NCBI GenBank assembly: GCA_000165345.1 | Contig: CM000429.1 | Location: 32,001-96,000 of the forward strand | DNA length: 64,000 bases | Direction of reading: 5' to 3' | Translations under genes and position numbers: made by a program | Shown here: positions 838-54,877 of the stretch, piece after piece | Position numbering within the stretch: position 1 is the first letter of the stretch | Layout of the letters: each line of letters begins with the position of its first letter | Notes under the pieces: model-generated | The model's input: only the letters and a program-made list of their open reading frames with translations | What the model was told of the DNA's origin: nothing | Databases searched by the model: none

Positions 838-3729
838 ATGAAATTTGATACAAAAGTATCACTTTTTGTATTATTTTCTTTGTCATTATTTTCAGTACTG
901 AGCTCAGCAAATATACCAAACGATGACGGGGAAGATAATCCAAAAAATGTAGAAAAAAGTATAATTAATAAATTCTCTGGATTAAATTTAAATGTATTTG
1001 AAGCTGAATTCTGTATAGAGATACTGATACAAATGATGCTTATAATTTATACATTCATATTGAGATGCAATGCGGTATTTAATCCTGAAGAAAGTATTGA
1101 ATCTGTCAGTAAATTAAAATTAATTCTTCTTTATATAGACAAACATTCACGATTTTCTGACAAAAAGAAAATGATATCTCCAAGTAGATTAAAAGGTATT
1201 AATGAAGCACTCAAATATTTAATAGAAACAGATTTAATGTACCAAATGGAGAATTCTTCGAAACTTGACGCATCCATTTTTGTAGTTTTAAGCGAAAGGC
1301 TAAACGAAATAACTTCAACATTGGAAATATTGAGTGAATTGTTGAAACTAATGATTATTAAAAAAGTTCATTTCGGTTATAACGTTATAGCAAAAAAAAT
1401 GATTTCTTTTCTTAGTAAATATCGTTTATTACTCAAAAGGTCGTTTGATTTGTACAAAAAAATGTCCAAAAGTAAATTTTTGCAACAATATGAAACAACG
1501 AAAGAAGTAGTTTGTACCATTTCTATTAATTTAGCTCATGGAATAAATCTACTTGAACCGGTTGAAAAATTATTGGATAATTATAATAAAAAATTGATTT
1601 TGCAAAATTCAACTGGAGTAAAAACGTCAGGTAGTAATAGATCAAGTGAAAAAAAGAAAAACGACTCAAATGAAAGAAACAAACAAAAATTATCAAAAAA
1701 TTCTGAGTTAAGTGAATACACATTCAAGATTGAAGTTATGATTAACTTCTCCTTTGAAGCTATTCTATTTGCAATTGAAAATTTTTTCTTTTTTAAAAAT
1801 GGTATTGCAAAAAAATCACTCTTGAAACATTTTGAAGTTTATGATAAAATACAACAAGAAATGTTTGCTAGATCGACAGAACTGTTACTTACAGAGGAGA
1901 AAGCATATGAAATTAAAGTAAAAGTTAGACAATTTTTGGATTTTGATTCATTATTGCAAACTGATAATTCTGTATTTTCATTCAACGGACCATTAAATAA
2001 AAGAACAATTATAGAAAAATTTACGAAATTAGTTGAAAGATTGAAAATATTATTGCTTTATTTAAAACAGGAAATAATAGGTAAAAGTTCCAGCTCATAT
2101 GAATATTTTTTATTACACAATACAATTATTTATTTAGAAGAAACAACATTAGATTTAGAGAGTGCTATTGTATTATTTGAACGCTATGAAATTGATCACT
2201 TACTTAAATTTCTAAACAGAAACAGTATGGAATTTTTAGCAAGTGCAAGAAAGTCCATGGTTGAAAGCTCAACAAGTAAAGGATTGCATACAAGTAAGAA
2301 GATGAAACCGGGTAGATTTAAAAATATTGAAAGTGTTTGCGCAACATCGAGCGTTCCCATTAATGAGAATGATCAAGTTGATCTTACGAGTAAAGCAACT
2401 GGTTCATCAAAAACTAAAAAGAGCAAGTCCATGAGAAAGCAGTTGAAAATGGAATTATTATTGTCTCAAGAAGAAGCTTCGGAAAAAAAATCGGCCATTA
2501 GTGAAACCATCAAAGAACAAAAAATGAGCAATCAAAAGCAATCAAAAAGAGATAAAATTCTGAATCGTGCAGAAAAATGGAAAAAAAAGAGAGAGAAGGA
2601 AGAAGATGAAAGAAGAAAGGAAAGAGAAGAAGAAGCAAAGAAGAAAAAGGAAAAAGAAGAAAAAGTTGAGCTTTGTCGTCTTGTAAGAGTCGTGACTAAA
2701 ATTGAACAAAATTTTGAAGCCGTAAATGAGGAGATTCAAATGAGAGAAAGTCTCCAGTCATTATTTTTGAATGTGTTTAATTTATTATCCCACTTAACTG
2801 AATCTGAAAATACTCGAAATGATAGAGAAAAAAGCCTGAATCAAATCTTTGAAGGTGGCACCTTAGCTTCAGCAAGTCTTGAAGAAAATAAACCTAGCCA
2901 GCCGCCTGTTGCAACTCAAAGCACTACAAGTTTTGTGGGAAGAAGCAAAGTTGGTAAAAGAAGAGCAGATGAAACTCATAAAAAACCTTTGGCAGCTTCA
3001 ACATTGGATCTAATTGCGAAAAGCAGAACTACTAATGAGTCAAGTGGTGGCAGATCTCTAAGTTTTAGTATAGACTCAGGTGAAACAAAGAGTTTAGAAA
3101 CTACACAAGCTGAGAGCGGAGACAAACTTAGAAGCAAGAGTAAGGAACATAGCAAAACTCATAGTCATAGTAGGAGTAGGAGTACTAGGAGCAGAACTGG
3201 AAGCAGAGGTAGAAGCAAAAGCAGAAGCAAAAGCAGAAGCAGAAGAGGTAGAAGCAGAAGCAGAAGAGGTAGAAGCAGAAGTAGAAGCAGAAGTGGAAGT
3301 AGTGGAAGAAAAAGCGAACACAATTTTGACTATGAAAGTGGATATTCTTTTGAAATACCTTTAACTGAAGCAGAGGATATTGATAGCACAAAAAATATTG
3401 AATCAAAGTTATTAAAGCTATTTTCAAGTTTTGAATCAAATACGTCTGAAGATTCCACTCAAACAGAAAAAAGTAAGGAACAGTTTCTTTTTAGTTTCTT
3501 TGGTATAAAAAGATTTGATTATTCAAAAATTACATCAGAAACTTCAACTTCTGAATTAGAAACAGCGATTTCGGACATTAGTTGTGAGCTTGAAAGAATA
3601 TATAAAGACGTCATTCCATTGTTAACAGGAGAAGACTATGAAATAGTCAAAAATTTTGAAAAATTTATGATCAAAGAACTAATCAAATTGCTAATAATGT
3701 TAAACAATGTTTCAGAAAAATATAAATAG
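838..3729 (+). CDS. Large secreted protein, paralog A of a tandem family (963 aa). It has a signal peptide, an alpha-helical N-terminal domain, a K/E-rich charged linker, an RS/SKSR dipeptide repeat and a conserved C-terminal helix.
   Basis: The ORF opens with ATG at 838 and continues unbroken. The N-terminus MKFDTKVSLFVLFSLSLFSVLSSA looks like a signal peptide. The charged block is KWKKKREKEEDERRKEREEEAKKKKEKEEK. The repeat SRSRSTRSRTGSRGRSKSRSKSRSRRGRSRSRRGRSRSRSRSGSS is encoded by (AGCAGA/AGAAGC)n at about 3170-3310. The C-terminal motif ERIYKDVIPLLTGEDYEIVKNFEKFMIKELIKLLIMLNN is shared with the proteins at 7482 and 10940. I recognise no enzymatic domain. Confidence 0.8.
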   Translation: MKFDTKVSLFVLFSLSLFSVLSSANIPNDDGEDNPKNVEKSIINKFSGLNLNVFEAEFCIEILIQMMLIIYTFILRCNAVFNPEESIESVSKLKLILLYIDKHSRFSDKKKMISPSRLKGINEALKYLIETDLMYQMENSSKLDASIFVVLSERLNEITSTLEILSELLKLMIIKKVHFGYNVIAKKMISFLSKYRLLLKRSFDLYKKMSKSKFLQQYETTKEVVCTISINLAHGINLLEPVEKLLDNYNKKLILQNSTGVKTSGSNRSSEKKKNDSNERNKQKLSKNSELSEYTFKIEVMINFSFEAILFAIENFFFFKNGIAKKSLLKHFEVYDKIQQEMFARSTELLLTEEKAYEIKVKVRQFLDFDSLLQTDNSVFSFNGPLNKRTIIEKFTKLVERLKILLLYLKQEIIGKSSSSYEYFLLHNTIIYLEETTLDLESAIVLFERYEIDHLLKFLNRNSMEFLASARKSMVESSTSKGLHTSKKMKPGRFKNIESVCATSSVPINENDQVDLTSKATGSSKTKKSKSMRKQLKMELLLSQEEASEKKSAISETIKEQKMSNQKQSKRDKILNRAEKWKKKREKEEDERRKEREEEAKKKKEKEEKVELCRLVRVVTKIEQNFEAVNEEIQMRESLQSLFLNVFNLLSHLTESENTRNDREKSLNQIFEGGTLASASLEENKPSQPPVATQSTTSFVGRSKVGKRRADETHKKPLAASTLDLIAKSRTTNESSGGRSLSFSIDSGETKSLETTQAESGDKLRSKSKEHSKTHSHSRSRSTRSRTGSRGRSKSRSKSRSRRGRSRSRRGRSRSRSRSGSSGRKSEHNFDYESGYSFEIPLTEAEDIDSTKNIESKLLKLFSSFESNTSEDSTQTEKSKEQFLFSFFGIKRFDYSKITSETSTSELETAISDISCELERIYKDVIPLLTGEDYEIVKNFEKFMIKELIKLLIMLNNVSEKYK
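3170..3310 (+). repeat. Coding hexanucleotide microsatellite (AGCAGA / AGAAGC / AGAGGT)n that encodes the RS/SKSR repeat of paralog A.
   Basis: The run agcagaagcaaaagcagaagcaaaagcagaagcagaagaggtagaagcagaagcagaagaggtagaagcagaagtagaagcagaagtggaagtagtggaag is visible directly. The minus-strand ORFs 3094-3321 and 3185-3439 are the antisense low-complexity echo of it. Confidence 0.85.
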
Positions 3730-6700
3730 CCTATAATGATTAACCATTATTAAATATGATTTCTTATCGTGAATGTGAGTTCAGGTATTTTACATTACTG
3801 ATGATTATATATTAAAATGAATGAAAATCCAACAAGATTCAACTATGAATGGTACAAAGACTTTTTTGAAAGATTTAAATGCTGTATTCAAAGAATCAAT
3901 TCTTCCGATAATAATGTAAATATTATTCAAAGAATCTATAGCAAGAATGAACAATCAGGTGAACATTTTTGTTAATTTCAAATTTTAACATTCGAAAAAT
4001 CAATTGAAGTCTTGAGCCAAATTTGATATTTGACTCGATTTTTTTTTGATTAAATTTAAAATATATTTTGGTTATCAATTTGAAAATTTTCAAAATAGAT
4101 AAACCGGCTCAAGTGTTTAAACACTATGATAAATTATAATATTAAGTTAATAAAGCAATCACTTTAATAAAAAAAAAGCTATACGGATAAATTCTTTAAT
4201 TAAGAATCTCCAAATAGTGTTAATTTATAACCAGAAATATGATATTAAGATATTTCGTTTTTCAGAAGATTGATATGAAATCATATTCGTATTCAAACTC
4301 AAAAGCATCAAAAGTCTAATAAAATTTGACTTCATTATGTAAATAAACTAATAGATAATCATCTTATGATTCATAAATTTTTTTTTATCACTTGTAAATA
4401 TAATATTTTTATTTCAAGCCCATTATTTTTTTATTTTTTAATATCTTATCTATATGCTTCATTAACGTTCATTTCACTTTAAAACGCTAATAAAGGCGAT
4501 TTTTTTTGGAATTAAAGTTGTAGGGATAAAAAAATCTGTTAATATGGTGTAATAAATTAGTTAAATTCTCGACAGAAAATAATAAAACTATTATTGTGAA
4601 ATCTAGTAGATTAGTTTTTTTATTGTTGAGAATCATGAATGAAATGCTCTATAAAAGAGATTTAAAATCTTAAATCTGTAGTTTATATTGTCTTAGATAC
4701 ATTCATAATATTCTTAATACTTGGTTCCATTTGATAAGATATTCCTTATTCATTATTTAATATATTAGACTATTTTTCATCCGTTACAGATCAAATATTG
4801 GTGTCAAGATAATAGATGATACCTTAAAAATTACATACATTAAGCCACAATATCAAAGCCAAGCTTAATATTAAGTTTTATTAGAAAGAAACCCAAGAGA
4901 ACATGGAATAACTCTAATCAATAATAGAAGAAAAATATTTATTTTCAATGTTGGTAGAAAACAAACTTTAAAAAAGTTATACGATAAAAAAAAAGTGGAA
5001 ACCACCATTTATAAGATTAACAAACTTTTTCAATTTAATGAAATAAAGGTTAGCTTGAAATCTATTTATAAAAAGAGAACTATTAAGGAATATTTCAAAA
5101 ATTTAATGGATGATATATATTTACATTATAATCAAAAATTAAACAAGTAATGTAATTTTATTATTTTTTTACTCACAAAAGTTATTTAAATTATTATGAA
5201 AAACATTAAACTGGCAAAATTTTACTTGAAGCCTTTTTTAAATTTGAAAGCAAAAATTAATTTAAGAAAACTTCACAATGAAAGTCAAATATTTTTGACT
5301 TACAAAAAAAATTAGCGTTTTAAACAATAGAGGAAGCATTCATTAAAAAAGAAAATGATGAGCCTTGCAAAGTTGAAAAAAGATATTCCGATTAATTAAT
5401 TTTGATAGAATTCTAAAATTAAAAATATTCACAAGAAAAAGTCGAAGGAATTGCCAAAAAATAAGTTTTAAGGAGCTTAGATATGTTTAATAGATTTTAT
5501 CACTTGTGCAAATGAATTTATTCAAAAATACAAAAAAGATATAAAAGGTTTCGCCCAAAATATTTAGCTAAAACAAAAACCTAATATAAAACAAAAATAC
5601 TAACAAATATAGCAATGGAAATGAAGTAGAAACACAGAAAAATGCAAATATAATATCTCAAACATTATCCAGAATAAAAATATCAACTTCAGGTCTAGGG
5701 TTGACATTATTTATGTTTCTATACTAAAAAACATGAAAATACCAAAAAAATTACCAATAATTAAAGAAAAATAAACAAAAGATAAATATATTAGAAAATT
5801 AATTCAAGAGCAAATTGAGGGATTCAAACCTGGAAAAAAAAGGAATACTTCATATTGAATAGATCAAAACAGAAACTTGCAAGAAGCTGAATTTGAACTA
5901 GAACCTGCCTTTGCTAATGAAAATATTAAACATTAAGTTATTATTGGGTATTTTTCTAAATAAATTTGTGTTTTAAAGAATTTAACAGAAATATTAATCC
6001 AGAGTCTTGAATTGTTGAAAGTTTTCGGAAACATACTACTCTGAATTTTTGGAAGATTTTGATTCAAGAAAAGTTACAAAAATAAATCATTTAAGCAAAA
6101 AAAGAAAATGTTAAAACAAAAAATTAAACAATTTATAGCTTTTCAGAGTTACTCTTGGTGAATTTAATGAGAAAAATTTTTCAGAAATATTTAAATTAAC
6201 AAGACCAAAACGCAGAATAGATCAAAACTTCACTTGATATGAAGGAAAGCCTATCTAGAGAAAATATTTAATCAAAGATTTAATAAAAATCGAATTAAAC
6301 ACAATATTGTATTAAAGAAGAAACAAATGGCTACTCAAAATAAATGGAGCTAACAATTCAAAAAAAAATTTAGTGTAATTAAATTTTTTAATATTAAATT
6401 GTCGATTTTTAATGTATTACAGCATTAAAAACCTTATTGCTAGTTCTTTTAGCTCTGAAAACCCGAATAAAAGAATTAAAATTAATAGTCAAGTAGTAAT
6501 TTTGCAAAATATAAGTGATTAAAATATTGTAAAATTAATTAAAAAAAATGATGAAAATTTCTGTTTAAATTATTTGAATAGAATACGTAACAATGGAATA
6601 AACCATTTCAAATTAAATAATTTAAAACAAATTAAGGATAAATACGAAATTAATTCAAAAAAATTAACATAAAATAATAGTGTGATGAGTGAAATGAAGT

Positions 6701-7481
6701 TGTAATTATTTTCTTAGTGAATTCAAAAACTAAACCAAAGTGAAAACACTTTATTTCAATATTGTGCAGAATAACAAGGAAAATAGTCCATGAACATCCA
6801 AAAACTTGATTAATAGATGCAGGAAATAAGATAGCCTATTTACTTGATGTAAATAGTAATTTATTGATTAATTTATTAAAGCAACTATAATATTGACATA
6901 AAATTTTTAAACGAAATAAGGAAAGTTTAACTATTAATTAACTTAAATAGAGAACTAATTATGAGCAAAATTTATGTATATCAATCAATGACCTAAAATA
7001 ATAACACTTTTTACCAGTGGAAAATATTGCTCCATAATTGTAATTGATAAGTCAATATTCATGACCCTAATAAGAAATACTAAACGACAAAATAAAATTA
7101 TTAAAGTAAGAAAGCAACAATGATCCAATATATTAATTAACATCTGCATTATCGGGAATAAAACAATGATAATAACATCGGAAATATCAATTTTTGCAAC
7201 TAAAAATCTAATTCCAAAAAAAACTAATTAGTGTTTAAAAATGAATGGTTAATATTTGAGAAAGTTGTACTACTACGGAAAATTCACCAGAAATAAATTA
7301 TCTAAACTTAATGAAACTATTTTGAAGAAAGTATTTGATATATTACAATTATAATTATGAAAATTAACCTTTAACTAGATTATTCGCGTATAGCGCGTAG
7401 ATAAAAGAAAAATAATTTATAGGTCAAGTTATACTAGAGATCTAAATGCTTATGTAATACAAATCTAAAATTTTATTAAAA

Positions 7482-10469
7482 ATGAAAAATAAACATATTT
7501 TTTTAAATATTTTAGTAATTGCCACCTTTTTATTAACTTTAATAGTAGAAGGAGCTGAGTTTAATGAAAAAAGTGGTTCTAAAGAAAATATAGGCCAAAT
7601 TCAGAAAGAAACATTAAGCCAGGAGAGTTTGGCTTTATTAACTCTGGTATCCAATACATATGAGCGGAATTGTTTAGTTGACATAATTGTTAAGCTACTA
7701 TTTTCTTATTCCGCTTTACTACTTAAGTTTTCATATTTTTTCAATGAAAATGTTCTTCATGAGCAAATAAAAAGATTGAGAGAAACGATTTTTCACGCAA
7801 ATTTAGAGTCGTTCTTTATTAACAAATATTTGCTAATAGACTATAAAAAGTTGGAACATATGTATAACAGTTGCTTTGATTATTTAAGATATAGTACAAT
7901 TAACCAATTAAATACCGAGTCATTAAATCAGCAGTATGCATTTATTATGAATATAGTTGAAAATCATGCCGAAATAATAAAACCAATAAGAGAATCTCAA
8001 GCATTACTTGAATATTTAATTTCTTGTGATTTAGATTCAAGTCTTAAATCAATGGTTTCAATACTAATTAATTATGTTTCCGAATTTATTAGTTTGGTAG
8101 AAGAATCTATAAAATCTTACAAAAAAAAGAAAAGAAATTTTAAGAAATTTTTTGATTCAAGAAAAGATTTTTTGAGCAAAGCTAATATCGACTTGGTGGT
8201 TTCTAATCAAAAATTACAGATTATGATGGAGATGAAAGTTAATTTTGAAACAAACAAAGTATTATTAGAAGAATATAATACATTTTTGGAAAATCCGGAT
8301 CAAAATTTAACCGAAGAAAAGGCTTCTCAACTTAAACAACTATATAATGATTATTATGAAAATAATGAATGTACCGAAGAAGAAATATTAGAAATGGAAT
8401 CTTTATTATCAATATCTATGGAATTATTGGGACTAATATCTGCCAACATGTTTTATTTTAATAATCAGGAGCTATCAGAAAATATAAGACTAGTTGAAGA
8501 AGCCATTTCAAATATTAATAAAAAGATTTCGACAAGAGGCACTGAAAATAATTTTGATGTAGAAGACAGTTTCAGAATAAAGAAAAGAGTAATGGAAAAT
8601 TTGGACTATGAAAAAGTAATAAGCTTAAATAATTTATCTTCCAAGTTTAGTAATAAATTATCTAGAGACGTAATAATTAAAAATCTTAAAGGCCTCTATT
8701 TATGTTTATTAAACATCTTGAAGATGTTAAAAAAAGAATTTCAATTAAATAAATGTGGCAAATATATTCAAGAGCTAATGCTTTTGGTTATCAATACTTA
8801 TGAAAAAATAGGAAAAGAATGCGCAGCATCTTTAAAATCAAATGAAAAGAACGAGAGTCTAACAATTTTACCTTTAGAAACTATTCGCGTTATAAGAGAA
8901 AGTACTATATCTAAATGTAAACAAATAATAACTGAGCAGGTAGAGAAAAAAAAGGAGAAAATGAAAGAAGAAAAAGAAAAACAAGAAAAGCTTGAAGCGG
9001 AGAAAAAAATACAATTAGAACAAGAGAAGTTGGAATATAAGAAAAGACTTGAGAAGCTGAAAGAAAGAAGTAAATCAAAACAAAAAAAATCATATCCTGA
9101 GGTTAAATATGAGATAAAAAAAGTACAAGAGTGTGATTCTATAATATTAGAAACTCAAAAAATGATTAGGCCTACTGTTAGAAATAAGGCTGAAAGAAGA
9201 AGAAGGTTGATGGAAGAGATAAATAGGTTTAATGAAAAATCAATAAAAAAAGAACTAATAAGAGAAGCGGTTAATAGACAAAGATTAACAAGAAAATCTA
9301 AAAAAAATTTAAGTTCAGGTGAAAGGAGATCTAAATCGCATTCAATGGAAATGAATAATGCCCAAACAAAAGATCAGATTACACATAGTATTGATATAGG
9401 AAGTGATTCAAGCCAAAATTCTTCTAATGAATCAAGTGGTGATGAAGAGACTTGTTCATCTGATGTTAAAAAGAAAAAACATGTAAAAAAAAAGGACTTT
9501 AGCAAATGTTTGTTACCCGTGATTAAACTCGTAGAGGATTCTATTAATGAAAGTAATAAATCACACCAACAAAGCAAAGGAGAAGGCATAAGTGAAGAAT
9601 CCGAGGGTGCTTGTTCAAGTCATGTAACAGAAAAAAGAGTTTCCAAAAAAAGACTTGCAAATGAAAAACCCGGTGATACCCCATTGGTCAAAAGTACTGT
9701 TGAATTATTTGGCGAATCATTTGTTTTTGAAACAAGAAAAGTTGGTCAAAGAGGAGCTATGGAAGGAACTGCAAAGAGCTCTTCCTTACGTGAAACTTCG
9801 AATTCCCCCTCTTCTGTTTCACAAATAGAAAGTATAACCGATAAACAATTATTTGGAAAACAATCAAACTCAGAAGCTCGAAAATCAAGATCTGGAGCAA
9901 AAAGCAGTAAATTATTTGTAAGAAGAGCTTTATCTGAGCCTCCTCTGAGAAATAAGCCAAGTTCAAATTTGAAAACTAGGGCAAAATCTATTCCAAGAAC
10001 TAGATCCAGATCCAGATCCAGATCTAGAAAAAGAAGAAAGTCAACATCTCGTTCAAAGCTGCATTTAAAATCTGAAATTTATTCAGATGATGCGACTTCA
10101 GAAATGATTTCAAAGTTAATACAGCTAGAAGAAAGAATGTCTTATTCTGTAGATGATTCACCTGGGTATAAATCCAAATTTATTCCTATGTTTTCAAAAT
10201 CAAAAGTAGCTGAAGAAGCACAATCCGTTGATATTTTCAGCTTTTTTAATATTGTTAATCTCGATTTTTTAGAAATCACAGAAGTTTCCACTATTGAAGA
10301 AATAGAAGCTGCCATCGAATTTTGCAGTGAAGAGATTACTCGCATTCATACTGAAATCCTACCGCTATTGACAGGCTGTGATCTAATTCAAATGAAAAAC
10401 TTTCAAAAGGATCTAATAAGCCGATTAATTAGATTACTTATTATGTTTAATAATAAAAAGAATGAATAA
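7482..10469 (+). CDS. Large secreted protein, paralog B (995 aa). Architecture matches paralog A: signal peptide, helical N-domain, K/E coiled linker, RS repeat and conserved C-terminal helix.
   Basis: ATG sits at 7482. The signal peptide is MKNKHIFLNILVIATFLLTLIVEGA. The linker is EKKKEKMKEEKEKQEKLEAEKKIQLEQEKLEYKKRLEKLKERSK. The RS repeat IPRTRSRSRSRSRKRRKSTSRSK is encoded by (AGATCC)n at about 10003-10030. The C-terminus ITRIHTEILPLLTGCDLIQMKNFQKDLISRLIRLLIMFNN aligns with paralog A. The N-domain segment LLGLISANMFYF and STRGTEN matches FLGLAAMNLSLL and NSRGTEI in paralog C. Confidence 0.8.
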   Translation: MKNKHIFLNILVIATFLLTLIVEGAEFNEKSGSKENIGQIQKETLSQESLALLTLVSNTYERNCLVDIIVKLLFSYSALLLKFSYFFNENVLHEQIKRLRETIFHANLESFFINKYLLIDYKKLEHMYNSCFDYLRYSTINQLNTESLNQQYAFIMNIVENHAEIIKPIRESQALLEYLISCDLDSSLKSMVSILINYVSEFISLVEESIKSYKKKKRNFKKFFDSRKDFLSKANIDLVVSNQKLQIMMEMKVNFETNKVLLEEYNTFLENPDQNLTEEKASQLKQLYNDYYENNECTEEEILEMESLLSISMELLGLISANMFYFNNQELSENIRLVEEAISNINKKISTRGTENNFDVEDSFRIKKRVMENLDYEKVISLNNLSSKFSNKLSRDVIIKNLKGLYLCLLNILKMLKKEFQLNKCGKYIQELMLLVINTYEKIGKECAASLKSNEKNESLTILPLETIRVIRESTISKCKQIITEQVEKKKEKMKEEKEKQEKLEAEKKIQLEQEKLEYKKRLEKLKERSKSKQKKSYPEVKYEIKKVQECDSIILETQKMIRPTVRNKAERRRRLMEEINRFNEKSIKKELIREAVNRQRLTRKSKKNLSSGERRSKSHSMEMNNAQTKDQITHSIDIGSDSSQNSSNESSGDEETCSSDVKKKKHVKKKDFSKCLLPVIKLVEDSINESNKSHQQSKGEGISEESEGACSSHVTEKRVSKKRLANEKPGDTPLVKSTVELFGESFVFETRKVGQRGAMEGTAKSSSLRETSNSPSSVSQIESITDKQLFGKQSNSEARKSRSGAKSSKLFVRRALSEPPLRNKPSSNLKTRAKSIPRTRSRSRSRSRKRRKSTSRSKLHLKSEIYSDDATSEMISKLIQLEERMSYSVDDSPGYKSKFIPMFSKSKVAEEAQSVDIFSFFNIVNLDFLEITEVSTIEEIEAAIEFCSEEITRIHTEILPLLTGCDLIQMKNFQKDLISRLIRLLIMFNNKKNE
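10003..10030 (+). repeat. Short coding (AGATCC)n microsatellite that encodes the RSRSRS stretch of paralog B.
   Basis: The run agatccagatccagatccagatctag is visible directly. Confidence 0.7.
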
Positions 10470-10939
10470 CATGCATTATTCTGACTTAAAATGAACAAAA
10501 AAATATTATATTTTATGGATACATAATGCTTATTTTACTACGAGATAAATGCGTCAGATTAATTAATCTTTGAATTAATTTTGTTTTTAAAGAATTAAAT
10601 ATTAAGTTTTTTTCATATAAAACTACAAATAATGCTCTACCTGCACTAATGTTTGCATTAATTAAAAATCTAAATTGTCTTTTACGAACATAATGAATAG
10701 TTTTTTTTTCTTAATTCACCCGTTATTTTCTGCAATTAACTTGTCTTATTTTTCTATTAAGTTGATATAGTTGAAATGTATTGGCGCCTAACGATCTTGA
10801 GCAGTAATGTAATTTTGGACCGACTATCTGCATTGATTATCTGCAAAAAAAAAAAAATTATGTAATAATGGGAAAAATATTAACAATACATGGTAATGCT
10901 TTTGATAGATGATAGAAGAAATATTACGTACTATATCAA

Positions 10940-20815: not shown

Positions 20816-22498
20816 ATGTTTTCTACTGCAGTAAAGCTAGCAAACTTAGATGATTATCTAGAATCTTCTCAAGATTGTATAGTTTCACTTTTATCGGATA
20901 AAGATGATACAAAGCCAAAAATTGCAGTGATGAGACCTGCAAAAGCCCAAGGTAATAAAGATGATAAAAAATCAGGAACTAGTGATAAGGCAACAGTAAA
21001 TGTGGCAGATTGTCTTGCTTGTAGCGGATGTGTAACTTCCGCGGAAGCTAAGCTATTAGAGGACCAAAATGTCTCAGAATTTATGAATATACTTAAGCAG
21101 AAAAGGCTAACTGTGGTATCTATTTCGAACCAATCATGCTCTTCTTTTGCCTGCCATCTAAATTGTGATCTAATAACAATTCAGAGAAAATTGTCGGGGT
21201 TATTTAAACATATTGGAGCTAGGTTTGTAATGAATTCAACAATTTCCGAGTATATTTCCTTATTAGAAACAAAGTACGAGTTTATTTCAAGATATAAGGC
21301 AAAATCTGATCTACCAATGATTATTTCACACTGTCCAGGATGGATTTGCTATTCTGAAAAGAGTTTAAATAGTTCTGTATTACCTTTATTGAGTAAAGTT
21401 AGATCAGCACAACAATTACAAGGAATTTTGATCAAGACTTTGACTCTTGAAATATATAATCAATTATTATTTCTGTATAAATTTAGATTAAGCAATTCTT
21501 ATAGAACAAATATGAATGTTAAATCAACCTTTACACAAAACGATAACTTTGTTGAACAAAGTGATATTTTTCATGTTGCTATTATGCCTTGTCATGACAA
21601 AAAATTGGAATCAACCAGAAGTTCTCTTTCTTTGAAGTCATCTGATAAAAATTCTAGTTGTCCTGAAGTTGACATAGTATTAGCAACATCGGAAGTTGGT
21701 GAAATAATAAAATTAGCAGGGTTTAATTCGCTATTGGACGTTCCAGAAGCTCCACTAGATAATTTGTGGCTTAACCAGAATTTTCAAATTACTAAAAAGC
21801 ATAATCTATCTCTTTTAATTACTGAAAATTATGTAAGCAATCAAATTCTGAATCAGTTTTCTTGGTTGATTCCTTCATATTTTAACTCAAACTCAGGCGG
21901 ATTCTGTGAATATATTATAAGAAGTGCAATCAAAGAACTTGCTGGAGATCATATTGATAATAAAGTTCAACTCCCATTTAATAAGTTAAAAAATGATATC
22001 TTAGAAGCCAAATATATTAAAAACAATGTTGAGCTGAATTATTGCCTTGCTTACGGATTTAGGGCAATCCAATCTATCTCTCGTAAGCTTAATTTGCAAA
22101 AGAACGCAAGCCAAAATACTCAGTATAAACAAAGCGTTGTAAATCATGTAAATTATCACTTAATTGAGGCTATGGCATGCCCAACAGGATGCGTTTCTGG
22201 CGGAGGCCAGATACTTTCACAAAACGATCAAAATGATGATAACTCTGATTTAAATAAGCTAAGAAAAAATATAAAGTTTATTGATGAGGTTCAGGAAGCT
22301 TTGTATAAAGGTATTAATTTAAATAAAAATCAAGAAGTTATACTGCCAGATGAAATTCCAATTGTGAATATTTTGTATGAATATCTAATTCATATAGACA
22401 AACAAATTGATAGAAGTTCTGGCTTAAAACTCCCTTTTCTTAGGAATGATTTCGTATCCATTAATGAAGTACCAACTGCATCTTCGTTGAAATGGTAG
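20816..22498 (+). CDS. NAR1: Cytosolic Fe-S cluster assembly factor NAR1/NARFL, an iron-only hydrogenase-like protein.
   Basis: The N-terminal cysteine cluster is VADCLACSGCVTSAEAKLLEDQ. The H-cluster-type motifs are AIMPCHDKKLES and MACPTGCVSGGGQI. The N-terminus MFSTAVKLANLDDYLESSQDCI matches the NAR1 consensus. The track ORF starts at a TTG at 20795, and the first ATG is at 20816. Confidence 0.9.
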   Translation: MFSTAVKLANLDDYLESSQDCIVSLLSDKDDTKPKIAVMRPAKAQGNKDDKKSGTSDKATVNVADCLACSGCVTSAEAKLLEDQNVSEFMNILKQKRLTVVSISNQSCSSFACHLNCDLITIQRKLSGLFKHIGARFVMNSTISEYISLLETKYEFISRYKAKSDLPMIISHCPGWICYSEKSLNSSVLPLLSKVRSAQQLQGILIKTLTLEIYNQLLFLYKFRLSNSYRTNMNVKSTFTQNDNFVEQSDIFHVAIMPCHDKKLESTRSSLSLKSSDKNSSCPEVDIVLATSEVGEIIKLAGFNSLLDVPEAPLDNLWLNQNFQITKKHNLSLLITENYVSNQILNQFSWLIPSYFNSNSGGFCEYIIRSAIKELAGDHIDNKVQLPFNKLKNDILEAKYIKNNVELNYCLAYGFRAIQSISRKLNLQKNASQNTQYKQSVVNHVNYHLIEAMACPTGCVSGGGQILSQNDQNDDNSDLNKLRKNIKFIDEVQEALYKGINLNKNQEVILPDEIPIVNILYEYLIHIDKQIDRSSGLKLPFLRNDFVSINEVPTASSLKW

Positions 22499-22727
22499 AT
22501 AGTAACATTTCGAATTGTTTCTGGCGCCAACATGTAATTTGGACCGGTAATATTGGCTATATTTGACAATGTAAATCATAATGTGGGGTACAGTATTGTT
22601 TAATTTCATCCTACGTTTTGAGATTACTAAATAAAAAAAATATTTTATATTTTCTAAAATTGTTCATTAAGATATTTATTTTTTTCAATTCTTTTGCTAT
22701 ATTCTTGTTTATACTTATGATTTAAAA

Positions 22728-23916: not shown

Positions 23917-24166
23917 TATGTTAATTACCAACCACAGCCTTTCTAATTTTAATAATGTATGTTACATTCACTTTCCATTTTGACAATTACCTTTGAAGGC
24001 GCCAATTTTAGGTACAGTTAAAATCGTGATAGAAAAGGCGCTAAATCATGTAGATTTAACAAAATTCCACACATTGTATTGTTTATAATTAAGATTTAAA
24101 GAAAAAAAGAGGATTGAACATAAAGAAATAACAAGTATACATATAAATACTCTTGGAATACACTCT

Positions 24167-28727: not shown

Positions 28728-28999
28728 TTAAACAACGAGATATCAATTTAATTGGGGATCATTTGATATAATGCTCAATTATTGGATACCTTTTATCTTA
28801 AAAAGTCAAAGATGTAGCATAACGGTGCAAACAGCACCTTTAAAGAAACGAGAACTTTCAATAAAATAAAAAAAAAAGATATGGCGCCACCCCACTGATT
28901 ATTTTTAGAAGATAGTATATTGGCAGAAAAAAACTAAGTTATTTAAAAATCTGCAATTAATAAAAAAAACATTGCATTTCTAAGTATCTAATTAGCTAT

Positions 29000-30499: not shown

Positions 30500-30768
30500 T
30501 TCTTCATAATAATTAATAATACTTAGCAAGATTTACTAATTTACTACGATAAATCTATTTTCTCTCGAAATTTGACCTTTCAAATTTTGGCGCCAAAATT
30601 TGAATTTGTATTTATGTAATGAAAGTTCATTACAGTTTTGCATGTAAAAGTAGTTGTTCAAGCTAATGGAATTCATTTTCTATTAAGAATTAAATTTGAT
30701 TTAGTATGAGCAATAATTTTTATTAGAAATATCTTTTAAGATTTTGAAATTTAAATTTACCTATTAAG

Positions 30769-32154: not shown

Positions 32155-32564
32155 TGATTAGCAACTACAATAAATGATTGATTACCAAAAAAAACTATCT
32201 AGCTCATATTATTAACTTAAATCGTAAAGTTAAATAAAAATTAAATTTATGCAATTTATTATCACTTTTACCTAAAGTATGCTCTATTTCTCGAGTTCAA
32301 TTCTCAACTTTATAATAAGTTGCGTTTTGCATGCAAATTATTAAACTAGACAAAAAATAAGTGTTTCAAAGCAAATTAAATACTGTGTGATGTCAGCATT
32401 GCATTTAAAAGTAAAAAATCTCTTTGGTAAATCTTCAATTATTACTTCGCAAAATTATCTGTAATAATTTCCAATGCTAAGATCAAATTAATATTGGCGC
32501 CAAAATCTCAATGCATATTTTAATATTCAAGAATAATACTGCTTAAAAAACTTTTTTTTCCATA

Positions 32565-34559: not shown

Positions 34560-34578
34560 GGCGCGCAAATGTGGCGCC
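34560..34578. promoter_or_regulatory. Tandem GGCGCGC / GGCGCC boxes in the divergent SDR / USP14 promoter.
   Basis: The sequence gaaggcgcgcaaatgtggcgccacaat lies between the minus-strand SDR start at 34468 and the USP14 ATG at 34630. Confidence 0.55.
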
Positions 34579-36703: not shown

Positions 36704-36747
36704 GGCGCCCAAAATATGGCGCTTCCAAAAGCCTCAAACCTGGCGCC
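36704..36747. promoter_or_regulatory. Cluster of three GGCGCC/GGCGCT (E2F-like) boxes upstream of RPS21.
   Basis: The sequence gcggaggcgcccaaaatatggcgcttccaaaagcctcaaacctggcgcctta lies about 170-210 bp upstream of the RPS21 ATG on the minus strand. In a sequence of about 28% GC, this six-base all-GC site should occur less than once in 64 kb by chance. Confidence 0.6.
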
Positions 36748-47824: not shown

Positions 47825-49289
47825 TAATTTATATCAGCTCTAAGATTTTTAATCACGTCTATTATTAAACTGCTAATTGAGCTTCGAAGAATTGATAATA
47901 ATTTGAATTTTCAAGAAAGGAAAGATCATCACAAGTCAGCTAATTAAGAGAAACTATTTTAAATATTTCTCTTTATCTTTCATTAATTTTCTGTCAGCCA
48001 TTGTAGCAGGCAGCAATCTGTTACTAACGACTATTCACTGCTCAATATAATTTGTATGCTTTAACCTTGAGTTTTTGGGATTTCAGGTTTAATAAGGTTG
48101 TTTAATTAGTTTAATGCAACCAGAAAAGTCATAAAGTCATGTATACAAGATTACCAAATATGTATTTTCATATGGGTTTTTTAATTATTGCTAGACTAAT
48201 ATTCAATTTTACATTCAGAATTGTAATTAAAAAAATCTAATCTTTTGGAAAATCTTAAATCCCAGAATCATTATATTCGAAGAAAAAATCACTGTTAAGA
48301 TATGAATTGTAATATGAGCCTATGGTAAATTATTAAAATTTGTTTTCTTTTTTTTTTTTTTAAATATATTGAAAAATTCAATTTCAATATATTTACTTTG
48401 TAATTATAGTACATATACCTATATATACATTTATAAGAAATGAATGTACATTCTTTTCTATGTATTTAATTTGTGTATGTATGAAAAAAATATTCATTAA
48501 CTCCAGATTCAAATTTAGAAGAAATTCACACAGAATCTGTATCATTCAAAAATTAGTAGAAAGTAATAAAGAATATAAGGTCCTAAGATTTAATAATAAA
48601 ATTAAACGTTAAAGGAATTTTTCCGTCTAAATCTGATAAATGTTCATAATATCAAAGCAAATATCAGGTTTTTTTTTCTAAATAATTATATTGAACAAAT
48701 TCAATAATTACCGGTATTGCCACAGGCATGGTGCATGCACTTGAATTTTGGAAATAATGTGGAAAACTACAAGAGTCTTTTTGCTTCAAATATTAATTAA
48801 TTAAAAAAAATACTATTAAAAATTCCGGGAAGATTTTTTTAGAATATTTTTTTTATCAATTAATTATTAGTTTTCTTCGAAAGGCAATAATTAATGCTAA
48901 TAGCTTTTAATTGGTACAATCATTGGAGATTACCTCAATTACCGATATTAGCAATTTGGGTTATTAGAAACCTTTTTCCAATAGATCAGCTTTAAAGTTG
49001 TGAGTGATATTATTTAGAAACAATGAATCACTTTGGCAAGGAAACTATTTGAAAGAAACTAGAGAAAACGATTCCAAATTTATGATTGAGGTTTAGTGTG
49101 AATTAACAAGAAGAATTTGGCGGCAATGTATTTTAGAAATTTCTGAGCAAAGTGGAATCACCTTTTGAAAGATAAAGTTTTTTTTTTTTTTTATATATAT
49201 ATAGAAAAGAATGAATCAATGAAAAATAGAAACTAAAAGTTACGTTAATAATAATAATAATAACAATAATTTTCGTTTTGATATTACTT

Positions 49290-51800: not shown

Positions 51801-51851
51801 CTCTAATTTTGTTTTAATAAATATTTAATTGTCACTGAATGACGCATACAT

Positions 51852-51863
51852 GGCGCGCGCGCC
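51852..51863. promoter_or_regulatory. Extended palindromic GGCGCGCGCGCC box just upstream of the NOC2 start.
   Basis: The sequence catggcgcgcgcgccatat lies 50 bp upstream of the NOC2 ATG at 51800 on the minus strand. Confidence 0.55.
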
Positions 51864-52016
51864 ATATTAGGGGTTTATACTAAAAACAAATAAAGCGAGA
51901 AACAAGGGTAAGTGAAGATATAAAAACTTAATGTATTAATGATAAAAATGATGGTATGAGAAGCTAACATTATGCCTCAATAGTAATTAAATATATTAAT
52001 AACCAAGCTACTTTAA

Positions 52017-54260
52017 CTAAACTTTCGAGTATGTTTCACTGGTAACTTGTACAGCACAACTATTAATCGCTTTAGTACTTTCTGTGTAGTATTTCTTATA
52101 ATAGATAGAGTATAATATAGATATAATTGTAACAATAGTAACTGAAATAATACAAACTGATAAATATGTCAGATTTTTTCCAAAGTCAGCTGGCTCGCTA
52201 TTAAGGAAGATGATACTTTGCTTGTTTTTAGAGTTCCGTTCTATATTAAGGTATATTTCGGAATAAGGAAGGAATTCATTTTTTCTTAAGTAAAGTTGAT
52301 TACATAAATAATCAGAACTTGATGAATGCACGATTAAAGCGGTATTAGAGTTGGAATTATTATCAGGGAATTTAATGAATCCGCACTGACAAATTCCATT
52401 CGTGTGTTTATTTTTAATGTTTGCAATACAAGTATGAATAATAAAGTTTGGGTTGGAATTTGATTTGGAAGCTATATTAATGGATGAATTCTTGTATTTG
52501 AAATTCACCTTAAATCCACGACTAGATCTTGATTCAACGGAATCGTTAAAAACAAACCCTCTAACAAACTTGAATTCATCTTTTCCATTTTCTTTTTTTT
52601 GCTTACCCAACGATATAAGCAATTGTTGTGTATTGCATTCATTTTCCATGCTGACAGTAGAGTTCAATTCCTTAAAATTAGAAGTTCTGTATCTAAAGCC
52701 GGCAGAATACTCGCCAAATTTGGTTTTTCCAGGATCAAATTTGGAATCTTGTTTACAGTTAGATGAAAGCAACTCCCAAGTAAAGATTGTGTGACATTCA
52801 GAAGTTCCCTTGGAATTATTTTTGTGAGTCTCATCAGTAGTATTGGAACAAATAGATGATAATCCACTGTTGAATAATGAAAATTCAAGTTTTCCATGAT
52901 TAACTTCAGAGTGCATTTGTAAGTGTAAGCTAGCAGAAATACTGAGCTCAATAGTGGACTTTGAGGCCACAGCAAGAATTTGGGGATAATATTTTTTTGC
53001 AATTGGGAAAATTTCACTCTGAGGGGGATAAAATCCAAAATATTCAGAGCCAATTTCTGGAGATAATGAAATTATATTGTGAGCTGCAAGTAAATAGTCA
53101 TCTGCTTCTCCCGAAGCCTCATAATCCATTGTGGGGTTTCTAGCTGCTGATGAGAAACAATAATTGGAAGCATTTTCAAATTCATTTCTTGATTTTGTGA
53201 AAAATGTTGAATCAAATCCTTTTTTGGCAGAATTGACAAAAAATGGGCCCTTCATATGCATTAAGGTTTTAATTATACAAGAAGGAGAAGATATTAAAAT
53301 TTCATACTTAAGTTCATTATATATGGAAGCGATATTCTCGTTTAGATCTTTGTCCTTGCAACAATTCCAAGGTATAGTCCACAAATCACCAAATGTATGC
53401 AGATTAACTGCAGTAACAAAACTTTTTACATTATTTACAAGATCTCTTACAGCTCGTGTTTCGGGTTCAGAAAAAGGATATTCCCCAGAATACTCTTGCG
53501 GGTCACATTTAGAAACAAGAGAGTTTTCAAAATTGAAGTCATAATTACGATTAATATCAACTCCATCTTCATCTGATCTCCCAGAATTACAAGTTTTCCT
53601 TTGATTCTTTCTAATCCCATAATTTCGTGTTCTTTCTATTGCTGCATATCCATCTGGATTTACAAATGGGACATACCAAATATCGATATTAGAGAGTAAA
53701 AAGTTAGAAGCAGGGTCTTGCTTATAAATTGCATCTTCCATGAGTTTAGTGATAAAGTATATTCCAGTTGTTAAGCCTGCAGGCTCTCTTGAATGATGCA
53801 TTGATGTTAGTAAAAATGCAGGTTTTTTACCCTGATTAATATAAAAGTACGAGTCTTCTGAATAAGAGCCATCCATCTTACTAAAAAATCCGACTCTATA
53901 AGCATCAATAGGCCTTCCTTCAAAACTTGTCCCTATTTTATGCTTCCTTATAAAGTTTGTTCCGAATTGTGATGCTAAATTATCCAAAATGATCATTGCT
54001 TCGTTCAATTTTGGGAAACTTCTCAATGAACCCCTATTCAAAGAATACAAAATTCTTCTAAGATCTTGGTTTTCAACACCATAATCCATATCTGGGATTC
54101 CTAATTCTAAATAATCATCAGGGATTGTTGAAATTTGTTCTCTTGAATATTGTAGCTTCCTCTCTGGTCTTTCTACATATCCAAAAACTTTGTAAATAAA
54201 TATCAAAAAAATTATGGTTAAAAAACTAATAATATCTGATGGCTTTCTTTGCTTCTTCAT
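52017..54260 (-). CDS. Membrane-anchored M14 zinc carboxypeptidase (type I: signal peptide plus C-terminal TM).
   Basis: Zn-binding HxxE is in MHHSREPAG. The substrate-binding NR is in GVDINRNYDF. The third His is in VNLHTFGD. The N-terminal hydrophobic segment is ISFLTIIFLIFIYKVFG and the C-terminal TM is LTYLSVCIISVTIVTIISILYSIYY. Confidence 0.8.
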   Translation of the reverse strand: MKKQRKPSDIISFLTIIFLIFIYKVFGYVERPERKLQYSREQISTIPDDYLELGIPDMDYGVENQDLRRILYSLNRGSLRSFPKLNEAMIILDNLASQFGTNFIRKHKIGTSFEGRPIDAYRVGFFSKMDGSYSEDSYFYINQGKKPAFLLTSMHHSREPAGLTTGIYFITKLMEDAIYKQDPASNFLLSNIDIWYVPFVNPDGYAAIERTRNYGIRKNQRKTCNSGRSDEDGVDINRNYDFNFENSLVSKCDPQEYSGEYPFSEPETRAVRDLVNNVKSFVTAVNLHTFGDLWTIPWNCCKDKDLNENIASIYNELKYEILISSPSCIIKTLMHMKGPFFVNSAKKGFDSTFFTKSRNEFENASNYCFSSAARNPTMDYEASGEADDYLLAAHNIISLSPEIGSEYFGFYPPQSEIFPIAKKYYPQILAVASKSTIELSISASLHLQMHSEVNHGKLEFSLFNSGLSSICSNTTDETHKNNSKGTSECHTIFTWELLSSNCKQDSKFDPGKTKFGEYSAGFRYRTSNFKELNSTVSMENECNTQQLLISLGKQKKENGKDEFKFVRGFVFNDSVESRSSRGFKVNFKYKNSSINIASKSNSNPNFIIHTCIANIKNKHTNGICQCGFIKFPDNNSNSNTALIVHSSSSDYLCNQLYLRKNEFLPYSEIYLNIERNSKNKQSIIFLNSEPADFGKNLTYLSVCIISVTIVTIISILYSIYYKKYYTESTKAINSCAVQVTSETYSKV

Positions 54261-54877
54261 TCTGTATTTTTACAAGATAAATATATATTTCTAAATAACA
54301 TTTTCAATTTTTTGCTTCCTTGTCAAAGATATTAAAAATTTGGCCTGCTTATAAATTACTATTGTAGAAAATATACCTGCATTATATGTTCTCTTGTTAA
54401 AATAGTAATCTAGACTTATATTATTTTCAAATTATATTTTTTTCTTGATTCCAATCCCCATTGCCCTTTGTCCGTGTGGAATTTTTATATTTCTTACCGC
54501 TTATTGTTTTCTCTGCCAAATGCGCCTTGGTAATTAATCATTAACTTATAATCATTTTATCCGAAGTTTTTTTAAAGTTAAGAAATGAAATTTTAAACCT
54601 TTTGTAAAATTTAAGTAAATTTACTTTACGCCTAACCAATTCTGAATTAATCTTTATTTAATTTTGCATAATCCTAATTACTATGTGGACACTCCACCTA
54701 ATGCAAACGCATGTATACCGGTACATGTAATGGAATATTTGTGATTTTTCCGTAGTATGCATGCACAATTGGAGTGGGAAATTGATAAGAATTACGGAAT
54801 AAAAGAATACATTATTACTTATATTAATTAATACTAATTATCTCTTTTCCCTAAAAGTGTATATTCATATAAAATGT

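Follow-up and report, generated by a model that had tools for sequence, protein, structure and literature searches.

E2F-like boxes in a window of chromosome 1

In Cryptosporidium parvum, the most over-represented motif upstream of genes is TGGCGCCA (Oberstaller et al. 2013, PMC3734150), and here we examine GGCGCC boxes of this E2F-like type in a 64-kb window of C. parvum chromosome 1, that is, the whole stretch of 64,000 nucleotides that was analyzed. In the same published motif set, motif 3 (DTTGSCGCCH) was over-represented in 114 of 200 expression clusters, and motif 4, TTTGGCGGGAAV, is also E2F-like (PMC3734150). According to that paper, the E2F-like motif had been seen earlier in a 2003 analysis of chromosome 6. 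The E2F motif is dominant in peaks from the assay for transposase-accessible chromatin with sequencing (ATAC-seq) of sporozoites, as well as in spacers within polycistrons (bioRxiv 10.1101/2025.01.17.633476). A 2025 review writes the motif as [A/T][C/G]GCGC[G/C][A/T], presumes E2F/DP as the factor, and stresses that few putative regulatory components have been functionally validated (PMC12246861). C. parvum has two E2F genes, cgd1_1560 and cgd6_1430, and two DP genes, all outside this window (bioRxiv 10.1101/2025.01.17.633476; PMC12246861). Our analysis makes it very likely that the GGCGCC and GGCGCGC sites of the window are ordinary instances of this published motif (approximately TTGGCGCCAA), and that two copies for which a shared partner sequence had been proposed do not form one element, the shared letters being a chance match.

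Coordinates are those of the window, and adding 37481 gives the coordinate in NCBI record CP029780.1 (881 kb). The measured GC content is 29.4%, which corrects the ~28% of the first-pass annotation. Open reading frames (ORFs) of at least 100 amino acids (aa) were used as the ORF set, leaving 24 kb of non-ORF DNA. GGCGCC occurs 12 times in the window against 0.48 expected, in line with the earlier estimate of fewer than one in 64 kb, and a count of 12 was reached by none of 100 dinucleotide shuffles. No other hexamer comes close to its enrichment, which is 19.7-fold for the window as a whole and rises to 64-fold in non-ORF DNA, with 11 copies there against 0.2 expected. The extended consensus sequences are likewise enriched, with 6 copies of TGGCGCCA against 0.09 expected and 10 of GGCGCCAA against 0.19. 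Exact GGCGCC copies start at 10783, 18545, 22523, 23998, 28883, 30589, 32496, 34573, 36704, 36742, 57462, and 61066, and GGCGCGC-type sites, with a GCGCGC core, are found additionally at 34560 and 51852-51863. Most of the positions listed in the first-pass annotation stand; the one at 36718 is a GGCGCT half-site, and the copy at 57462 had been overlooked. This last copy lies inside ORF 56700-57512, so that the description of all boxes as intergenic is right for 11 of the 12.

Strict cores are present in 12 of the 23 promoter-bearing spacers (tandem or divergent) and in none of the 7 convergent spacers. From box to nearest start codon, the distance is mostly 52-240 bp, close to the 50-250 bp given previously, with boxes 18545 (419 bp) and 57462 (308 bp) farther away. 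The gene names were also upheld: assignments as DEAD helicase, NARF, ARL2, Nop16, C13 peptidase, SDR, USP14, and NOC2 are backed by Pfam, and those as ZNF207-, RPS21-, UBC7-, and PSMB2-like rest on inspection of ORF translations. The NARF-like protein is coded at 20816-22498 and was located on CP029780.1, and the 528-aa protein (18964-20550) matches "hypothetical protein CPHLJ_1g180 [Cryptosporidium parvum]" with 100% identity. The sites are as follows, none of them being assigned to a strand.

10783 to 10788: E2F-like box, 157 bp upstream of the ATG (10940) of secreted paralog C.
18545 to 18550: E2F-like box, 51 nt past the stop of the 285-aa gene, with the start of the 528-aa gene 419 nt farther on.
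22523 to 22528: E2F-like box, 25 nt past the NARF stop codon; 205 nt from the first in-frame ATG of ARL2 (22728) and 238 nt from its annotated start (22761).
23998 to 24003: E2F-like box in the divergent spacer between Nop16 and a Yop1-like gene.
28882 to 28895: TGGCGCCACCCCAC, an E2F-like box abutting a G-box (reverse complement of GTGGGG); the box at 28883 is 156 bp upstream of a 354-aa gene on the minus strand.
30579 to 30604: 26-bp perfect palindrome TTCAAATTTTGGCGCCAAAATTTGAA with an E2F-like box (30589) at its center, ~90 bp upstream of the minus-strand gene for the DEAD helicase.
32496 to 32501: E2F-like box in a divergent spacer, 69 bp upstream of the ZNF207-like ORF (32565).
34560 to 34578: GGCGCGC and GGCGCC pair in the 161-bp divergent spacer between SDR and USP14.
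36704 to 36747: two GGCGCC copies and a TGGCGC half-site (36717), upstream of the RPS21-like gene on the minus strand.
51851 to 51864: TGGCGCGCGCGCCA, 52 bp upstream of NOC2 on the minus strand.
57462 to 57467: GGCGCC in the 3' end (last 50 nt) of ORF 56700-57512, 308 bp upstream of a kinase ORF.
61066 to 61088: TGGCGCCAACATTCTTTTGGCGGG, two E2F-like boxes (of motif 3 and motif 4 types) in the divergent spacer between UBC7 and PSMB2.

The comparison with the described C. parvum motif is close. The 12 GGCGCC copies and the GGCGCGC-type sites at 34560 and 51852 carry its core, [C/G]GCGC[G/C], and its A/T flanks (TGGCGCCA / TTGGCGCCAA), and they are strongly over-represented in non-coding upstream DNA. 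Like the published motif, they precede ribosomal-protein genes and housekeeping genes and also occur where a spacer separates two genes of the same strand. We see no essential difference, the boxes here being instances of that motif. With the canonical E2F/DP site of animals and plants (TTTSSCGC; palindromic TTTGGCGCCAAA; both taken from PMC3734150), the boxes share a 6-bp symmetric CG core, a T-rich 5' flank, an A-rich 3' flank, and promoter location. They differ in their targets, which are housekeeping and secreted-protein genes, and E2F/DP occupancy is here only putative. The earlier identification of the boxes as the known E2F/DP cis-element agrees with this match in core and W flanks, with their confinement to promoter-bearing spacers, and with their conservation.

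Conservation of the boxes was compared across five to eight other Cryptosporidium species. For a first comparison region, syntenic loci came from chipmunk genotype I, C. ubiquitum, C. canis, C. felis, a Logan-assembly species, C. xiaoi, C. ryanae, and C. andersoni; for a second, from C. ubiquitum, C. canis, and C. felis. In pairwise spacer alignments, E2F-core hexamers were kept letter for letter in 8 of 10 cases in C. ubiquitum (against 14.6% of background hexamers), in 7 of 9 in C. canis (against 6.7%), and in 3 of 10 in C. felis (against 2.5%), counts in which the overlapping hexamers of the GCGCGCGC run enter separately. The raw sequences agree on conservation at 18545, 23998, 28883, 30589, 51852, and 61066.

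Site by site, box 10783 is invariant in chipmunk genotype I and C. ubiquitum. Box 18545 is retained in chipmunk genotype I, C. ubiquitum, C. canis, and the Logan species, where it reads GGCGCCA, GCGCCA, or TGGCGCC, and the equivalent spacer of C. xiaoi and C. ryanae has TGGCGCC, but at another position. Box 22523 shows an identity of 0.97 over six species. Box 23998 was found in all six intestinal-clade species, four of which have a second copy. The E2F box at 28883 is retained in 6 of 6 species, and the abutting CCCCAC in 5 of 6, being missing in C. felis. Box 30589 is retained in C. felis, and the sites at 51852 and 61066 in C. ubiquitum, C. canis, and C. felis. Box 57462 is conserved too, though this is confounded by its coding context. 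Boxes are thus retained at orthologous positions while their flanks diverge, and, with their core letters conserved well above background hexamers, the boxes are under purifying selection. Collectively, the enrichment and promoter location of GGCGCC are confirmed, are conserved, and were already known.

Proposed partner sequences at paralog C and ARL2

The first-pass annotation had further proposed that GGCGCC and a downstream partner, ATGTAATTT(T)GGACCG, make up a bipartite element, or an E2F box with a dedicated co-factor site, in at least two promoters. If true, an E2F co-factor site could explain how different expression timings arise from one ubiquitous motif. Both partner strings are indeed present, on the same side of GGCGCC and less than 40 nt away from it:

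10807 to 10822, plus strand: partner copy 1, exact ATGTAATTTTGGACCG, 18 nt after box 10783.
22532 to 22546, plus strand: partner copy 2, exact ATGTAATTTGGACCG, which takes in one half each of ACATGT and ACCGGT and the variable spacer between them.

The match was assessed by composition-weighted gapped local alignment of the ±60-nt flanks of the 12 boxes, taken in all pairs, with both flank orientations scored because the box is palindromic. At 26.1 bits, the proposed partner match is the best among the flanks. A score of at least 26.1 bits was also reached in 16% of 400 random sets of 12 intergenic anchors (p ~0.16) and in 10% of 400 shuffled-flank sets (p ~0.10), so that the match is within chance for the search space and the partner does not recur beyond it. 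The partner starts 18 nt after box 10783 but 3 nt after box 22523, a difference of 15 nt; neither spacing nor orientation is constrained, and with a palindromic box, "downstream" is undefined. Of its component words, GGACCG is at chance frequency (3 against 2.0 expected), and ATGTAAT is a common intergenic word (20 against 12.3 expected in the 24 kb of non-ORF DNA, 1.6-fold). Allowing up to 2 mismatches, we found no non-orthologous copy of the partner in the 64-kb window or in eight loci of other species (L002-L009), ~270 kb. No other E2F box in the window has the partner.

Nor is the partner conserved as a unit in orthologous promoters. The whole 170-bp promoter of paralog C is well conserved among C. 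parvum, chipmunk genotype I, and C. ubiquitum, and within it 56% of the partner's columns are invariant, compared with 72% of those in the remainder downstream of the partner. With GGCGCC invariant, the GGACCG half is lost in the closest relatives, the position reading GGACTA in chipmunk genotype I and AGACCT (ATGTTAATAGAGACCT) in C. ubiquitum. This copy contains neither ACATGT nor the ACCGGT palindrome, and its letters appear to be a largely unconstrained stretch.

Paralog C belongs to a set of three tandem paralogous secreted-protein genes at 838-13741, of about 930-995 aa, which are clearly similar only over their C-terminal ~100 residues (38% identity). Their promoters differ, A having GGCGGG, B no E2F core, and C GGCGCC; that of paralog A holds only ATGTAATTTTACATC at 548, plus the GGCGGG box at 763. 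Inheritance of the partner with the paralog family was considered and rejected, the promoters of paralogs A and B being without it. Segmental duplication between the two partner-bearing promoters was rejected as well, as the similarity ends at the 15/16-mer.

At ARL2, by contrast with the variable spacer surrounding it, the partner lies in a strongly conserved region (mean identity 0.83, against 0.53-0.56 in the flanking spacer), which counts in favor of the proposed bipartite element. Besides the box and partner copy 2, the region contains these features:

22530 to 22535, no strand assigned: ACATGT palindrome (published motif 7, ACATGY, AP2_1-like).
22543 to 22558, no strand assigned: ACCGGTAATATTGGCT, the ACCGGT palindrome with ATTGG (CCAAT on the minus strand), ungapped from the E2F box.
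22582 to 22591, plus strand: G-box TGTGGGGTAC (published motif 2, DTGTGGGG), the end of the block.

The block, TTGGCGCCAACATGTAAtttgGACCGGTAATATTGGCT ... GACAATGT ... TGTGGGGTACA, is ungapped in six intestinal-clade species and begins 25 nt past the NARF stop. Its order is E2F box, ACATGT, ACCGGTAAT, CCAAT, and G-box, with ACCGGT at a fixed 14 nt from the E2F box. Over the six species, identity is 0.97 for GGCGCC, 0.97 for ATGTAA, 0.89 for ACCGGT, 0.86 for GGTAATATTGGCT, and 0.89 for the G-box, and it falls to the block minimum of 0.67 in TTTGG, the center of the 15-mer. C. xiaoi and C. ryanae likewise have ACCGGT, after GCGCCAAAA. By this identity profile, the constrained units are three 6-bp palindromes (GGCGCC, ACATGT, and ACCGGT) together with the minus-strand CCAAT and the G-box. 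The ARL2 15-mer is an arbitrary slice across this conserved fixed-spacing promoter block, and it halves both of the conserved cores, ACATGT and ACCGGTAAT.

Most parts of the block have published counterparts. ACATGY (motif 7, AP2_1-like), YTTACAT (motif 9), DTGTGGGG (motif 2), and a CAAT-box-like family have been described in C. parvum (PMC3734150, Table 1), and three of these are represented at conserved positions of the ARL2 block, by ACATGT, TGTGGGG, and ATTGG (CCAAT). Within the partner it is ATGTAA that is conserved, although ATGTAAT is a near-match rather than an exact match to motif 9 (reverse complement ATGTAAR). The ACCGGTAAT word is absent from the published motif list (PMC3734150), and our literature search turned up no description of it in Cryptosporidium.

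Composite promoters of cell-cycle genes in metazoans pair an E2F site with a CCAAT/NF-Y box or use a CDE-CHR tandem. The ARL2 block resembles them in placing an E2F-type box and its neighbors at fixed distances, ungapped over 36 nt in five to six species. It differs in that the partner is unlike a CHR or NF-Y site and that the spacing is not common to both copies. Overall, a composite element is not supported, and the identity of the two partner strings is best explained as a chance match of AT-rich promoter DNA containing the common word ATGTAAT.

The ACCGGT word and other readings of the boxes

Several points weigh against reading the window as ordinary E2F-like boxes plus a chance match. 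The scan for recurrence of the partner covered 64 kb of C. parvum and eight loci rather than the whole C. parvum genome. A third ATGTAAT-N5-ACCGG lies at 56050, where the site is conserved only partly; the pattern then occurs 3 times against 0.09 expected, a figure to be read in light of its derivation from two of the three hits, the extra hit alone having p ~0.09. ATGYAAT and ACCGG also co-occur elsewhere in conserved contexts, and the two words may be linked. Finally, our literature search found no chromatin immunoprecipitation (ChIP), cleavage under targets and release using nuclease (CUT&RUN), or binding-array data for Cryptosporidium E2F/DP.

The alternative that survives best takes ATG(C/T)AAT and ACCGG(T) as a real pair of co-operating cis-words, independent of E2F, which would be permuted in the ARL2 15-mer and have a degenerate half at paralog C. 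We regard this as a tentative possibility, somewhat short of an even chance. ACCGGT occurs 9 times in the window against 1.6 expected, and 6 times in non-ORF DNA against 0.6, repeatedly adjoining ATG(C/T)AAT or GCATGCA. The arrangement ACCGG-N0-4-ATGYAAT gives 6 hits against 0.04 expected, five of them in an array at 16750-16978 and one at 54717. This last hit is upstream of an M14 carboxypeptidase gene, in a block ATTRCAT-NN-NCCGGTATRCATG that is conserved in C. ubiquitum and C. canis. At 48710, CCGGTA beside TGCATGCA is conserved in C. ubiquitum. The five array hits, however, are one duplication event, which leaves few independent loci, and the order and orientation of the words vary by locus. 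Moreover, ATGTAAT alone is barely enriched (1.6-fold), the paralog-C copy has only ACCG and is unconserved, and the evidence comes from the window and its syntenic loci.

The tandem array, at 16686-17060, consists of about five units of ~87 bp and precedes the conserved 285-aa gene (17637) by 0.65-0.95 kb. It is present in four species, namely C. parvum, chipmunk genotype I (period 88-92), C. canis (95-96), and C. ubiquitum, with unit lengths of 87-96 bp across species; in the loci of other species it lies at 7607-8050 (L002), 7435-7927 (L004), and 7760-8010 (L003). Each unit contains TGTGGATTACCGG(C/T)ATG(C/T)AATTA and a second CACCGGTG(C/T)ATG(C/T)AAT or ATATACCGG. Units are homogenized within species, and a core ACCGGYATGYAAT-N3-6-AYGTGTAAAAA, with a second ATATACCGG ~25 nt on, is common to all four, which argues for the word pair. 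In its sequence, the array looks like a multimerized binding-site array.

Two further blocks contain these words. At 54700-54760, read in the minus-strand sense and 457 nt upstream of the M14 start codon (gene 52017-54260), TGCATGCA ... ATTACATGTACCGGTATACATGC ... CCACATAGTAATTAGG is retained in C. ubiquitum and C. canis. At 48680-48760, TGCATGCA is followed 17 nt on by ACCGGTAAT; this block lies in the 1.47-kb convergent spacer 47825-49289, unusually long for converging 3' ends, and the spacer may hold an unannotated gene or RNA.

Our literature search found no report of an ACCGGT motif in Cryptosporidium, and the main text of the ApiAP2 binding-array paper contains neither a CCGG nor a TGTAA string. 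It is conceivable, though we would not bet on it, that ACCGGT(AAT) is an undescribed conserved cis-regulatory word acting with the AP2_1-like (C)ATG(C/T)AAT, and that the partner is a fragment of a multi-factor grammar. The ACCGGT word and the tandem array are the only possibly new items here; they fall outside the original proposal and rescue neither the paralog-C copy nor a link to E2F.

Returning to the boxes themselves, we infer E2F/DP binding because the motif is identical to the canonical site and Cryptosporidium retains E2F/DP. In this compact genome, parasite E2F/DP heterodimers would bind the palindromic box within short, nucleosome-free spacers, and the bound box would help to set up transcription of the adjoining gene; in divergent spacers, one box may serve both genes. 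It is unlikely that the boxes are instead bound by a factor other than E2F/DP, or are mainly structural, nucleosome-excluding GC islands in AT-rich spacers. The literature yielded no direct binding data, and the targets, which are housekeeping and secreted-protein genes, do not make up a cell-cycle regulon, both of which would fit another factor. Against this, the palindromic core and its T/A flanks match the canonical E2F/DP site exactly (PMC3734150). Among apicomplexan genera, Cryptosporidium is alone in being known to retain E2F/DP, and the dominance of the E2F-like motif is likewise confined to it (PMC3734150, PMC12246861). As for GC islands, it is specific letters that are conserved, not GC content alone.

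It is quite improbable, too, that the ARL2 block acts in RNA, whether as part of a 3' untranslated region (3'UTR), as a signal for polyadenylation, or as an element between the cistrons of a NARF-ARL2 dicistron. Being so close to the NARF stop codon, the block is probably within the NARF 3'UTR, and C. parvum polycistronic transcripts carry E2F motifs in their internal spacers (bioRxiv 10.1101/2025.01.17.633476). However, the six-species consensus fold has -3.1 kcal/mol with a covariation term of -0.16, the single-sequence fold of C. parvum is no better than shuffles (z = +0.55), and Rfam has no match anywhere in the window, so that conserved structure, covariation, and family membership all fail to indicate a structured RNA. 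Palindromes, a G-box, and CCAAT are rather typical of double-stranded DNA recognition. Lastly, a bipartite element of GGCGCC and the proposed partner is very unlikely in view of the chance-level match, the unequal spacing, and the halved or lost cores described above.

Other conserved stretches and significance

A few stretches of the window stand out apart from these questions. The interval 13742-17636 is 3.9 kb without an ORF of at least 100 aa in a very compact genome, and comparable gaps of 4.5-4.9 kb are found in C. ubiquitum and chipmunk genotype I. Its origin as a decayed paralog was considered and rejected, as tblastn searches gave no match there to paralogs A-C or to the 1058-aa gene of C. 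canis, and the interval had no Rfam match. The interval may harbor a long non-coding RNA or serve as an extended regulatory region.

In the spacer between the 285-aa and 528-aa genes, C. xiaoi and C. ryanae have GTGGGGAAC(C/T)ATGGCGCC, which is similar to the E2F box and G-box of TGGCGCCACCCCAC. Compared with the pair proposed in the first-pass annotation, the latter combination has the stronger claim to be a true E2F composite. The same spacer in C. parvum (18495-18963) contains, at ~18740-18770 and ~200 bp upstream of the 528-aa gene, a block CACACAGTA(T/C)(A/G)TGTCGT(A/T) that is conserved from C. parvum to C. xiaoi and C. ryanae, deeper than the E2F box of that spacer. Another block, CCATTTACCACACACAACACACATTTAGGCGGTAAA in the minus-strand sense, lies at 56440-56500 in the divergent spacer (55863-56699) between Coq4 and a 270-aa gene. 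It is nearly invariant in C. parvum, C. ubiquitum, and C. canis, is recognizable in C. felis, and holds CACACA (AP2-type) and GGCGG words.

Cryptosporidium is a major cause of childhood diarrhea, and its gene regulation is largely uncharted, with the E2F-like box as the main known promoter signal of the genus. What is new about the box here is only its cross-species positional conservation at these chromosome 1 promoters: individual boxes hold their position across species with 40-60% intergenic divergence. The fixed-spacing block at ARL2 and the ACCGGT word are modest leads for promoter dissection.

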